From Thermodesulfovibrionales bacterium (GTDB lineage Bacteria; Nitrospirota; Thermodesulfovibrionia; Thermodesulfovibrionales; SM23-35), in NCBI GenBank assembly GCA_030019415.1, contig JASEEX010000008.1:1-57026 (forward strand): a DNA stretch of 57,026 nt. Direction: 5' to 3'. The translations under genes and the position numbers were made by a program. The notes beneath the pieces were generated by a model. That model was given only the letters and a program-made list of their open reading frames with translations. It was not told the origin of the DNA and did not search any database. Shown piece by piece: positions 10,080-55,695 of the stretch; position 1 is the first letter of the stretch, and each line of letters opens with the position of its first letter.

Positions 10080-10087
10080 GCTATTTA

Positions 10088-10187
10088 CCCCGTTAGAAAG
10101 CCCCGACATTTACCTTTTTAGATAGTAAATTACGGGGGTTCATTCCTTAATTGACGGCTGGGTTAAAGCCCGCCCTTTCTAACGGGG
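10088..10187. mobile_element. 100-bp element with CCCCGTTAGAAAG/CTTTCTAACGGGG TIRs
   Basis: 4-bp TSD TTTA on both sides; its TIR supplies the current hemB stop codon. Confidence 0.85.
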
Positions 10188-11156
10188 TTTATTCAAAATC
10201 CTTGCTGCCTCTTTTGCAAAATAGGTAAGGATTAAATCAGCGCCAGCACGCTTGATTGATGTAAGTATCTCCATCATAACACGCTCTTCGTCAACCCAGC
10301 CGAGTCTCCCTGCTGCTTTCACAAGTGAGTATTCACCACTAACATTATAAGCTGCTACAGGAACATCAAAGGCATCTTTGACGTCCGAAATAACATCAAG
10401 ATATGCGAGTGCGGGTTTAACCATGATGATGTCTGCTCCCTCTTCTATGTCGAAGGCAACCTCTCTTAAAGCCTCCCTTCTGTTTGCTGGATCCATCTGG
10501 TATGAGCGCCTGTCTCCGGATTGTGGGGCTGACTCTGCTGCCTCCCTGAAAGGACCATAAAAAGCGGATGCGTATTTTGCAGCATAAGACATAATAGATA
10601 TTTCCTGGAATCCTTCTTCATCAAGGGCTAACCTGATTGCTCTGACTCTCCCATCCATCATGTCTGAGGGTGCGACCATGTCAGCACCTGCCTTTGCATG
10701 AGAAACAGCCTCTTTTGACAAAAGCTCAAGTGTCGGGTCGTTTTGAACCTCTTCATCTTTTACCACTCCGCAGTGGCCGTGGCTCGTATATTCACACATG
10801 CAGACATCCGTAATCACATATAATTCAGGAACGGCATCTTTTATAGCCTTTATTGCATCCTGGACAACCCCATGCTCACCGTATGCACTGGAGCCGATTT
10901 CGTCTTTATGTTCCGGGATCCCGAAGAGTATTACGGAGGGTATGCTGAGGGAATAAACTTCTTTGGCATTCTTGACTACCTCGTCAACAGATTCCTGAAA
11001 GCATCCAGGCATTGATGAAATCTCTTTTTTCACATCTTTGCCAAATGTAACAAAAAGAGGATATATGAAATTATCAGGGGAGACGGAGGTTTCTCTCACC
11101 ATTTTTCTGATGGTCTCGTTTTTTCTTAACCTCCTTGGCCTATGAATCGGAAACAT
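10179..11156 (-). CDS. hemB: Porphobilinogen synthase
   Basis: [20 protein letters not shown] (Zn site), [22 protein letters not shown]. Confidence 0.97.
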
Positions 11157-28439: not shown

Positions 28440-28533
28440 GTCATTCCCGCTTGCCCCGTTAGAAAGCTTATTTCTAACGGGGCTTGTCGGGAATCTTTCT
28501 TTTCAGAATGATTGCGGACAAGCCGCAATGACA
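28440..28533. repeat. REP-like doublet interrupted by a 29-bp micro-element
   Basis: GTCATTCCCGCTTG[insert]TCGGGAATC..GATTGCGGACAAGCCGCAATGACA. Confidence 0.75.
28454..28482. mobile_element. 29-bp micro-element CCCCGTTAGAAA-N5-TTTCTAACGGGG
   Basis: 4-bp TSD CTTG (28450-28453, 28483-28486). Confidence 0.88.
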
Positions 28534-50742: not shown

Positions 50743-50924
50743 AATTCCAAAATTTGAATCTTCTCCCGACCTACAGCGGTTTTCTTTATCAGTAGCCAGA
50801 CAGTTATAGTTTACCCTATTGTTGCAATAATACATATACGCAAAACTCTACGCTCACCCGTTAGAAAGGAAGCCCATCTTGTTACGAGAGCTGAGGAAAA
50901 AGTTAAATAAAGGAAGGCATACCT

Positions 50925-52940: not shown

Positions 52941-54665
52941 ATGAATTCCATATTCAACGAGCTTCTCGAGCTTACAAAAGAACCCAAGATAGCCTACTTC
53001 TCTATGGAGATAGGCATTCAGAATGACATCCCCACATACAGCGGTGGCCTCGGTGTGCTCGCAGGGGATACTATCAGGTCGGGGGCTGACCTTAAACTTC
53101 CGATGGTTGCTGTAACCCTTATTAGCAAAAAGGGATATTTCAGACAGGAGCTGGACGAGAGAGGAAGACAGACGGAGCACCCTGTCTCCTGGGATCCCTC
53201 TCAATATATGACACTCCTTCCCACCAGGATCTCTGTACAGATTGAAGGGAGGGATGTTGCGGTTCAGGCATGGCTACATAAAGTAAGAAGTCTGACAGGC
53301 GGGAGTGTACCAGTCTTCTTCCTTGATACAGATGTACAAGGGAATATGTTAGAGGACAGGGAGATTACCTCTTATCTCTATGGTGGTGACCAGACATACA
53401 GGCTGAAGCAGGAGATAGTCCTCGGGATTGGTGGGGTAAGGATGCTCCATGAGCTCGGCTTTGAGATAAAGAAATATCACATGAATGAGGGGCATTCAAG
53501 TCTGCTCACTGTTGAACTTCTTAATATGTATAAACGTCCAATAGAAGATGTCTGGGATGAAAGGCTGGTATGGGATGTAGATAGAGTAAAAGACCTCTGT
53601 GTATTCACAACTCATACACCTGTTGAGGCAGGGCATGATAAATTCCCTTACGAGCTAGTTAAAAGGATTGTGGGAGAACTGATACCTTTCTATGTCTTAA
53701 AGGAACTCGGTGGCCGTGATTACCTCAATATGACTCTTCTCGGACTGAATCTGAGCGAGTATATCAATGGGGTTGCAAAAAAACACATGGAGATTTCCCG
53801 AAATATGTTCCCTGGATATGAGATCAGTGCTATCACAAATGGTGTTCATTCATACACATGGACGTGTGATAGTTTTAAGAGGCTTTACGATAAATATCTC
53901 CCCGCATGGGCTAATGAACCAGAATTATTTGTGAGGGTTGGCCGGATACCCGATGAAGAGATCTGGAATGCCCATATGGAAGCGAAAAAAAATCTCTTCG
54001 ATTATATCAAGGCAGAAATAGGAATAGAGTTCGATCTCGAGACCTTTACCATAGGGTTTGCAAGGAGGGCGACAGCATATAAAAGGCCCGACCTCCTATT
54101 CAGCAATATTGAAAGGCTCGAGAGGATAGGGGCAGGGAAACTCCAGATTGTCTATGCTGGGAAGGCACATCCACAAGATGAGACAGGCAAAAGGCTGATA
54201 GAGAAGATATTCTCTTTCAAAGAAAGGCTAAAGGATAAGATTAAAATGGTTTATCTAAAAAATTATGACATGGAAATTGCCCTCAGGCTCATCTCCGGCG
54301 TTGATATCTGGCTTAATACCCCCTTGAGGCCGAGAGAGGCCTCTGGCACGAGTGGTATGAAGGCAGCACACAATGGTGTATTGAATTTCAGCGTCCTCGA
54401 CGGGTGGTGGATAGAAGGCTATATTGAGGGATTTACGGGTTGGTCTATTGGCCCGCCCCCTACTGAGACAGGACTTGTCGAAAACATGGATACAAGGGAT
54501 GCCGATGACCTCTACAATAAACTCGAATATATCATTATCCCCCTTTTTTACAATGACAGACATACATGGATAAGGATGATGCAGAACGCTATAGGTAAAA
54601 ACGCCTATTACTTCAATAGCCACAGGATGATGCGAAGGTACGTCCCAGAGGCATATATACGATAA
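52941..54665 (+). CDS. glgP: Alpha-glucan phosphorylase (short form)
   Basis: AYFSME, YSGGLG.LAGD, HMNEGH, FTTHTP, ITNGVH, FARR..YKR, EASGTSGMK. Confidence 0.95.
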   Translation: MNSIFNELLELTKEPKIAYFSMEIGIQNDIPTYSGGLGVLAGDTIRSGADLKLPMVAVTLISKKGYFRQELDERGRQTEHPVSWDPSQYMTLLPTRISVQIEGRDVAVQAWLHKVRSLTGGSVPVFFLDTDVQGNMLEDREITSYLYGGDQTYRLKQEIVLGIGGVRMLHELGFEIKKYHMNEGHSSLLTVELLNMYKRPIEDVWDERLVWDVDRVKDLCVFTTHTPVEAGHDKFPYELVKRIVGELIPFYVLKELGGRDYLNMTLLGLNLSEYINGVAKKHMEISRNMFPGYEISAITNGVHSYTWTCDSFKRLYDKYLPAWANEPELFVRVGRIPDEEIWNAHMEAKKNLFDYIKAEIGIEFDLETFTIGFARRATAYKRPDLLFSNIERLERIGAGKLQIVYAGKAHPQDETGKRLIEKIFSFKERLKDKIKMVYLKNYDMEIALRLISGVDIWLNTPLRPREASGTSGMKAAHNGVLNFSVLDGWWIEGYIEGFTGWSIGPPPTETGLVENMDTRDADDLYNKLEYIIIPLFYNDRHTWIRMMQNAIGKNAYYFNSHRMMRRYVPEAYIR

Positions 54666-54772
54666 ATAACCAATTACCAAATTACAATAACCAAAAAACA
54701 CTTGAGTTTTGCGATTGGTAATTGGTTATTGGAACTTATTTGATGTTTGGTTATTGATTATTGGTGATTTGG
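54666..54772. repeat. AATAACC / GGTTATT array hairpin
   Basis: Same architecture as 46950-47104. Confidence 0.8.
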
Positions 54773-54798
54773 TCAGGTAAAAATATTCTACTTTTGAA

Positions 54799-55695
54799 AT
54801 GAATAATATAAAGGAGATAGAGACAAATCTCGAGGTAACAGTGCGCTTTCTATCAGAAGAAATAGGGTCAAGGAGTTATAAGGATTTAGAGGAACTTGAG
54901 AGGTCCGCTGATTACATAGAAGAAAAAATGGTTTCCTCCGGGTGTGATGTAAAGAGACAGTCTTTCACATATATGGGAAACACCTATCACAATATCATTG
55001 GAGAAGTAAGCCCCGTTAGAAAAGATATTTCTAACGGGGTAAGAGGTGATAAGGAATCGGAAACCCTTATCATAGGCGCTCACTATGACACGGTCCCGGG
55101 CACACCAGGTGCTGATGATAATGCAAGCGGAATTGCAGGCTTGCTTGAACTCGCAAGGCTTGCTGCCCTGAAACCATCCCCAAGGACTGTTCGGTTTGTT
55201 GCCTTTACCCTCGAAGAGCCACCCTTATTCAAAACAAGACATATGGGTAGCTATATGTATGCAAAAAGCCTTAAGAAAGAGAAGGTAAAGGTTGAGGGTA
55301 TGATATCCCTCGAGATGATTGGCTATTTCTGTGAGAGAAAGGGATGCCAGTACTATCCCTTTCCTTTCTTCAAATTGTTTTATCCAGAAAAAGGTGACTT
55401 CATTGCCTTTGTAGGGAATATATCCTCGAGGGCATTCACAAAAAGGGTAAAAAATGCCTTTCAGAAAGCATCAACCTTGCCCGTAGAGTCCCTCAACACC
55501 GTATCCATTGTTCCTGGAGTTGACTTTTCTGATCACTCATCATTCTGGAGCTTTGGCTATCCGGCATTCATGATAACAGACACTGCATTCTATAGAAATC
55601 CTAATTATCATACTGCAGGGGATAGGGCTCATACACTCGATTATAAAACGATGGCACTACTAATCTATGGACTTAAATCCGCTCTTATTCCCTGA
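54799..55695 (+). CDS. M28 family Zn peptidase with an 11-aa element-derived insert
   Basis: [20 protein letters not shown]. Confidence 0.9.
55011..55039. mobile_element. 29-bp micro-element inserted in frame
   Basis: CCCCGTTAGAAA-AGATA-TTTCTAACGGGG; TSD TAAG (55007-55010, 55040-55043); +33 bp encodes [11 protein letters not shown]. Confidence 0.9.

Follow-up and report, generated by a model that had tools for sequence, protein, structure and literature searches.

A probable family of miniature palindromic DNA transposons with a 29-bp minimal form in a Thermodesulfovibrionales genome and in genomes labelled as many other phyla

Rickettsia palindromic elements (RPEs) are palindromic repeats that lie in frame in unrelated metabolic and housekeeping genes (PMC10969869, citing Ogata 2000), and according to the account given in the same review the protein fold is believed to accommodate the peptide segments they add. 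Prokaryotic MITEs are assigned there to type II when their similarity to any IS is restricted to the terminal repeats, and they are described with terminal inverted repeats (TIRs), a target duplication, no coding capacity, many copies, nesting and a presumed mobilisation in trans, at a size of 50–500 bp (PMC10969869). REP and REPIN sequences have been described as short high-copy hairpin repeats and as miniature non-autonomous mobile DNA (PMC3116915).

Here we describe a family of elements found in a 57,026-nt stretch of a Thermodesulfovibrionales genome (contig JASEEX010000008.1, called the window in the following), which is closest to RPEs in behaviour and to type II MITEs in anatomy. Like RPEs it inserts in frame into unrelated protein genes, and like MITEs it combines TIRs, target duplication and many, partly nested, non-coding copies with a presumed mobilisation in trans. 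From both it differs in its minimal size, in its spread across labelled phyla, which is unusual for MITEs, and in its insertion in one orientation. RPEs, compared here by description, have about 150 bp and are reported in Rickettsia, whereas the present elements have 12-bp arms, duplicate 4 bp of target and go down to a minimal unit of 29 bp, and the forms of 27–33 bp lie below the range that the review gives for MITEs. REPs are extragenic, lie beside a RAYT gene and have no duplication, in contrast to the present copies, which occur in genes, have duplicated targets and show no Y1 adjacency. Judged from these descriptions REPINs are more distant than RPEs and MITEs, and the same applies to the Coxiella QMITEs as described (PMC5896051).

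IS200/IS605-type (HUH) elements insert in a polar manner beside a tetranucleotide and without a duplication; of the present elements all 41 informative copies are inserted in a polar manner, and 115 copies have exact duplications. Transposons of the piggyBac/IS1380 family duplicate a T/A-rich tetranucleotide of 4 bp and have ends beginning with CCC. The present elements are similar in their duplication (4–5 bp in that comparison) and in ends that start with CC; the target of the piggyBac type is palindromic, whereas the present target is asymmetric and its insertion polar, and a co-occurring cognate transposase with matching ends was not found, as the ends differ and the IS occurs in one of five carriers. 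The small dispersed repeats of cyanobacteria reported by Elhai and co-workers in 2008 are said to be hairpins of 21–27 nt, proposed to be mobile and often nested; they have other hosts, and the likeness is one of description. Searches of the literature with the arm sequence, with MITE plus phylum names and with wording for a smallest transposon found no description of the present element in print, with ISfinder, Repbase and supplements being outside their scope. We regard the elements as probably a non-autonomous, MITE-like DNA transposon family, the minimal member of which consists of two 12-bp inverted arms and a loop of about 5 nt.

The copy in the peptidase gene and its surroundings

From 55007 to 55043 the window reads TAAG CCCCGTTAGAAA AGATA TTTCTAACGGGG TAAG (Table 1). 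Without the duplications this copy is a palindromic 29-mer (55011–55039) with perfectly complementary arms and thus with TIRs. The initial annotation had described it as two 12-bp TIRs around a variable 5-nt loop, AGATA here and GCTTA in a second copy, with different 4-bp target duplications (TAAG, CTTG and, for a 100-bp form, TTTA), and we could read both copies and all three duplications in the window. The arm pair with five free central bases has two matches in the window (28454 and 55011) compared to 0.00 expected from 100 shuffles, and the arm 12-mer with at most one mismatch has seven compared to 0.24 expected. As single-stranded DNA the 29-mer is calculated to fold into a 12-bp stem with one extra G-T pair (−13.5 kcal/mol, z −7.9). 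One of its reading frames carries TAG and TAA while the other two are open on both strands, giving the peptides PVR[KN]..SNG[VA] or PLE..FLTG, and the insertion lengthens a gene by 29 + 4 = 33 bp.

The host ORF belongs to Peptidase_M28 (PF04389, E 1.6e-28) and from residue 85 on it is related to aminopeptidases of solved structure (2ek8, 6hc6 and 1amp). In an alignment of 12 sequences (A1) the 11 inserted residues are present only in the source genome (G000; 1.94 Mb, 42% G+C, 166 contigs) and in a genome of the same genus (G001), and they are absent from 10 of the 11 aligned orthologues, all 10 from other genera. Pfam and this alignment confirm that exactly 11 residues have been added to an M28 peptidase in an open frame, as initially proposed. 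The G001 gene has both arms and the same TAAG duplication, with one substitution in the loop. Invariant in the alignment are H95, D97, D106/D107, E139/E140, E172, H246 and H271, motif residues of M28 peptidases that we take to include the metal ligands. The AlphaFold2 model (mean pLDDT 85.6, pTM 0.89) has the insert between strands 61–70 and 89–95 with pLDDT below 50 at residues 75–85, and it suggests a floppy surface loop that is predicted to be disordered. In a public groundwater run (X1) one contig of 3731 bp crosses the insert without a gap and with 36 differences in 803 bases, and no contig of the public runs carries an empty peptidase allele. We infer that this copy is older than the split of the two congeneric genomes, and it would be a tolerated selfish passenger rather than an adaptation.

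Other repeats are found in the same window. Between a phosphorylase-like gene and the peptidase lies a third multi-copy repeat (54662–54797; AATAACCAATTACCAAAT and an inverted partner) with 49 BLAST hit rows in G000; its 136 bases are skipped by the contig of a close relative, and the depth there is several-fold higher. The second 29-mer sits in the CTTG loop of another repeat, the uninserted paralogues of which read GTCATTCCCGCTTGTCGGGAAT and are located at C74:16627, C122:68701 and C144:16365. This second repeat family (28440–28532) consists of paired hairpins (GTCATTCC-G-CTTG-C-GGAAT ... GGA-CAAG-CC-AATGAC) and occurs at about 30 places in G000, with its CTTG loop being a recurrent target of the 29-mer. 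Composites of repeat and nested 29-mer were found at four places in G000 and at two more in G001, and because the latter two are absent from G000 the composite itself appears to be mobile. The 100-bp form folds at −27 kcal/mol (z −6.1). The minus-strand ORF at the 3' end of which it lies now ends with a TAG inside the right arm (10176–10187), and from a reading of the flanks the insertion seems to have swapped out the original stop codon at a gain of two residues. A partnerless arm-like 12-mer at 50856 may be a remnant or a chance match.

Table 1: Positions of the element copies, their parts and the host gene in the window.
Feature	Position	Strand	Evidence or remark
Left copy of the target duplication, TAAG, 4 bp	55007..55010	.	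Single copy in orthologues, e.g. L006 and L007, which read uninterrupted GTAAAAGG
Left arm CCCCGTTAGAAA, 12 bp	55011..55022	.	77 exact 12-mer copies in G000
Loop AGATA, 5 nt	55023..55027	.	AAATA in the same-genus copy, one substitution, D to N
Right arm TTTCTAACGGGG, 12 bp	55028..55039	.	Read from sequence
Right copy of the target duplication, TAAG	55040..55043	.	Read from sequence
Host gene, M28 peptidase	54799..55695	+	Pfam, alignment A1, AlphaFold2; insert at residues 71–81
Second 29-bp copy, loop GCTTA, CTTG/CTTG duplication	28450..28486	.	Intergenic; nested in repeat 28440–28532
100-bp form, TTTA/TTTA duplication	10084..10191 (element 10088–10187)	.	3' end of minus-strand ORF 10179–11156
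Solitary arm-like 12-mer ACCCGTTAGAAA, one mismatch, partnerless	50856..50867	+	Sequence match

Distribution, target sites and host genes of the family

The 77 exact arm 12-mers of G000 form 62 nearest-partner pairs of 27–154 bp, and an alternative count that includes outer and nested combinations results in 69 candidate pairs; the family has roughly 60–70 copies of 27–154 bp in this genome. The long forms possess two GC-rich inner hairpins. Both arms are consensus in 27 of 72 pairs, and in 8 of 72 the same non-consensus base is found on both arms. From 40 relatives five contain the arm 12-mer in abundance (G001 50, G013 54, G021 41, G003 22 and G004 22) and in the others it is rare or was not found, with a reversed-pattern control giving 0–5 matches per genome.

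Using one genome per species and the exact arm pair with a gap of 3–33 bases as query, we found the pair in at least 118 public genome stretches, and it is present in genomes labelled as at least nine phyla. Metagenome-assembled genomes are the source of all data, and the phylum labels were assigned by the depositors, so that individual labels may be wrong. The 118 stretches among the matches listed are labelled as Omnitrophota (32), Patescibacteria groups (26), Planctomycetota (21), Thermodesulfobacteriota or delta-proteobacteria (15), Nitrospirota (13) and others (11, with one Aenigmatarchaeota, two Clostridia, Elusimicrobia and Cloacimonadota among them), and five carrier genomes have 24 to 150 arm hits each. 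The listed stretches contain 123 copies with a sharp length peak at 29 bp (31 copies compared to 4 each at 28 and 30 bp), followed by 53 bp (18), 40 bp (11), 33 bp (10) and 32 bp (9). The exact arm pair is also present in three viral-classed contigs of a viral contig collection (L204–L206; copies of 29, 38 and 29 bp), which are possible vehicles for a spread between lineages. In G043, a genome labelled as Omnitrophota, a larger MITE with arms CCCCGAACCACGG and TAAA flanks contains a 30-bp copy nested at TTTA, the loop of which is fixed (L169–L179), and there may accordingly be a wider group of elements that share CCCCG ends and this target.

An exact 4-bp direct flank was found for 38 of the 69 candidate pairs in G000, none being longer than 4 bp and 31 of the 38 being TTTA/TAAA, and for 77 of the 123 copies in the listed stretches outside G000; 31 of 69 and 46 of 123, respectively, have no exact duplication. 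The target duplication therefore has a fixed length of 4 bp, as in MITEs. All 115 exact duplications (77 + 38) fit 5'-YNNR-3', and the oriented target logo shows T/C (98/17), T (108), T (91) and A/G (90/25), followed by C or T at 106 of the 115 sites.

Clean empty sites exist at three levels, namely paralogous repeats, genomes of other genera and a genome of the same genus. For the 101-bp copy in MqnA, G001 has a single TTTA and its protein is without the 35 residues; for the 29-mer in Ppx/GppA the peptide NPVRKSFSNGV is present only in G000 among six aligned sequences; and for the 29-mer in FtsQ the G001 flanks overlap by TTTG at 97% DNA identity. In the reverse direction three G001 copies (L213, L219 and L221) are empty in G000. 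Altogether 20 copies of G001 were examined, from which 7 are common to G000, 3 are cleanly empty there, 2 have the whole composite repeat missing in G000 and 8 are ambiguous; L215 was left out of the shared-site set as its immediate flanks do not align. At one shared insertion (C122:56367–56418 and L220) the duplication is TAAA/TAAA in G000 and TAGA/TAGA in the congener, both copies being changed alike, and such a matching change might also be due to chance.

In three families with recognisable interiors all 41 informative copies are oriented in agreement with the T-rich target strand (8/8 for the ~100-bp form, 8/8 for the 33-mers and 25/25 for the 95/123/40-bp form). Four more copies with ambiguous flanks were set aside in this count, and a nested 33-mer at C22:31996, which was skipped by the scan, looks opposite by eye. 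TTTA/TAAA accounts for 9 of 33 duplications in forms of up to 32 bp and for 63 of 82 in forms of at least 33 bp (p 1.3e-6), with only 33 of 73 minimal copies having an exact duplication. This distinct target spectrum and the same-genus empty sites of two 29-mers other than the peptidase copy are the reason why the minimal forms appear to insert as such, and why we take the 29-mer itself to be mobile.

Some short forms do arise in place by deletion: the 40-mer is the 95-mer without the stretch between two 13-bp direct repeats, and shared sites have different lengths in G000 and G001 (33 and 31, 43 and 52, 101 and 92, 121 and 30 bp). At C85:13587 a 29-mer may have been nested at TAGA before a deletion took place between direct arm copies. 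At C89:71771 the loop is inverted, and G001 has a compensated change on both arms. A test for arm conservation (3/192 compared to 6.3% in the flanks, P 0.0016) was rejected, as the G001 copies had been picked by exact arm match.

In G000 nine in-frame host genes with Pfam domains were identified, encoding Peptidase_C26, FtsQ, BcrAD/CoA-activase, MlaC, MqnA (with its domain split in two), a PAP2/PMT_2 protein, Ppx-GppA and a B12 radical-SAM protein in addition to the M28 peptidase. Pfam domains were also identified in 21 of the 23 host frames that were tested among the matches listed from other genomes, including UvrA, SMC, PNPase, ArsA, two UvrD helicases, IF-2, ComEC, PheT, DNA polymerase III delta', Asd, MurB and ETF. 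If a copy is counted as lying in a gene when the open frame has at least 150 residues with at least 30 on each side of it, this applies to 32 of the 123 listed copies, 30 of which add a multiple of three; by manual count their peptides are PVR..SNG in 23 cases, PLE..LTG in 8 and mixed in 1. Sites were also restored by removing the element and one copy of the duplication, whereupon a long frame was regained at 34 sites. At 29 of these the frame is also open with the element, all 29 being in frame, and the other five genic sites look disrupted. In-frame lengths are found for 72 of the 123 listed copies overall (p 1.3e-8) and for 40 of the 86 that look intergenic (p 0.012). That almost every intragenic copy that has survived is in frame would be the expected outcome of purifying selection, and another cause has to be assumed for the excess of in-frame lengths and the 29-bp peak in the intergenic copies. 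The initial annotation had expected duplications at other copies, a bias of intragenic copies to multiples of three and the existence of empty sites, all of which we found, and its picture of a minimal non-autonomous element that persists in genes and adds peptide loops agrees with the Pfam hosts in G000 and in the listed stretches.

In three loci with Planctomycetota and Nitrospiraceae labels (L030, L043 and L110) the element is inserted at TTTAC in the codons of a prepilin-type G-F-T, resulting in GFT-PLE...FLTG-FT with an intact G-F-T motif recreated past the insert. From the sequence it looks like the element lands here in a leader peptide that is apparently cleaved.

Mobilising enzyme and competing explanations

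MITEs have related autonomous IS with the same ends, whereas arm pairs 0.3–6 kb apart that enclose a transposase were found neither in G000 nor in the 118 listed loci nor in the near-complete 5.2-Mb genome G046, among the 85 arm hits of which no autonomous element was present. The same is true for the about 100 of 150 arm hits listed for G044, a 6.5-Mb genome with long contigs, and a general search of G000 for inverted repeats of the CCC type at a spacing of 0.6–3.5 kb gave nothing convincing. The initial annotation had suggested mobilisation by an enzyme encoded outside the window. The two best-looking long arm pairs in the 118 listed loci have ordinary genes between them, and the same is true in G046 for an EF-Tu gene with a copy on either side, which is an ordinary gene between two insertions.

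Candidate transposase families were examined and rejected as well. For the IS1380 family (NF033539) the ends differ, both in the G000 fragments and in the copies of relatives: the copies of this lineage have TTAA flanks and the end CCCGAATTACGAAAGG, to which the arms align only with two gaps. One of five carrier genomes tested has IS1380, with other ends, and it is missing from the other four, which are incomplete genomes. G000 contains at least three kinds of IS1380-family elements (C107:7803–9298 and the contig ends of C75, C29, C85 and C97), mostly broken at contig ends and with A/T-rich flanks such as TTAA; the assembly was probably fragmented by these repeats. All five genomes tested have DDE_Tnp_1 (PF01609), with loci that are free of arms, and the ends are also different in two IS elements that G044 has in high copy number.

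The duplication, as the product of a staggered cut, favours a DDE-type enzyme, and strict polarity at an asymmetric target favours an asymmetric or strand-recognising complex, a combination that we cannot reconcile with any named family. In the mechanism we propose for a mobile MITE-like family, an enzyme supplied in trans would make a 4-bp staggered cut, the duplication pointing to a transposase of the DDE type and the polarity to an asymmetric complex. The 29-mer would move as a unit of its own, possibly after extrusion of a hairpin or cruciform in which its two ends come together. What the data show is that insertion duplicates a YNNR target, which is mostly TTTA for the larger forms and a broader set for the minimal ones, and that copies persist in frame in real genes as short extra loops, because 33 bp are added and two frames are free of stops on either strand. 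Several points count against this explanation, among them the missing partner element, the candidate enzymes that do not fit, the many copies without a clean duplication and the short forms that arise in place. Moreover, from what is established for transposases a straight duplex of 29 bp should be too short for both of its ends to enter a single classical synaptic complex, and with identical arms and a symmetric dimer one would not expect strict polarity.

The most serious alternative is that the 29-mers are immobile, each being the collapsed remnant of a longer MITE that lost its interior at the site. The 40-bp form with its deletion between 13-bp direct repeats, the shared sites of unequal length in the two congeners and the polarity of the long form kept by 33-mers and 40-mers would all be explained in this way. 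The 29-mers of FtsQ and Ppx, however, are missing in the congener at 97% DNA identity of the flanks and 91% protein identity, which leaves little time for a stepwise shrinkage that preserves the frame, and remnants would inherit TTTA, whereas the forms of up to 32 bp use other targets. As the sharp peak at 29 bp and nested 29-mers with exact duplications of their own also speak against a general collapse, we consider it unlikely.

Slightly less likely still is a REP/REPIN-like hairpin that is moved as single-stranded DNA by a Y1 HUH transposase of the IS200/RAYT type and inserted beside TTTA. Hairpins in the size range of REPs, the polar insertion at an asymmetric tetranucleotide and the pyrimidine that follows it would be in agreement with such a transfer, and Y1_Tnp (PF01797) has nine matches in G000 and is present in five of five other carrier genomes. 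It is also present in 34 of 41 relatives, many of them without the element, and was therefore rejected as uninformative; no arms are located within 1.5 kb of the nine Y1 genes of G000, and in the other carriers only 3 of 12 Y1 genes have arm pairs in their 2–3-kb loci. HUH elements make no target duplication, whereas 43 of the 115 exact duplications are tetramers other than TTTA that match on both sides, and the present copies lie inside genes while REPs are extragenic. That the hairpin or its peptide is a module selected by the host, for instance as a terminator, as a useful loop or for the binding of a protein, is very improbable, even if the arms are the same under the different phylum labels of the depositors and co-vary in 8 of 72 pairs and in one shared copy with compensated arms, and even if the peptidase copy is kept in two species, as the hosts are unrelated genes and intergenic sites, presence and absence vary between congeners, the loops of the 29-mers are not conserved, the insert is predicted to be disordered and the apparent conservation of the arms was biased by the choice of copies.

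Implications of a minimal mobile element

A more far-reaching version of the mobile MITE-like family can be offered tentatively, as a possibility we would not expect to hold in full. The 29-bp hairpin might be a complete transposition substrate and thus among the smallest DNA transposons proposed, moving in the form of an extruded hairpin or cruciform by means of an asymmetric enzyme complex that has so far no link to any IS family. It might have spread between lineages of many labelled phyla that live together in groundwater and sediment, with the small-genome Patescibacteria and Omnitrophota among them, and might act there as a natural loop-insertion mutagen of essential proteins.

For the analysis of metagenome-derived genomes such hairpins matter as they can mislead alignment, annotation and assembly. 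A real duplication, strict polarity and no partner IS together fit no textbook family and make the element a puzzle. For short lineage-specific insertions in conserved proteins of poorly known phyla, such as UvrA, IF-2, PheT, PNPase and DNA polymerase III delta', the family provides a concrete source, and the element could mark recent gene flow between carrier lineages. If our explanation is true, this would be a unit shaped to survive in genes, with its 33 bp, two stop-free frames and a Pro...Asn-Gly peptide, and it would represent a limit case in which a transposable unit reduced to two 12-bp arms still spreads.
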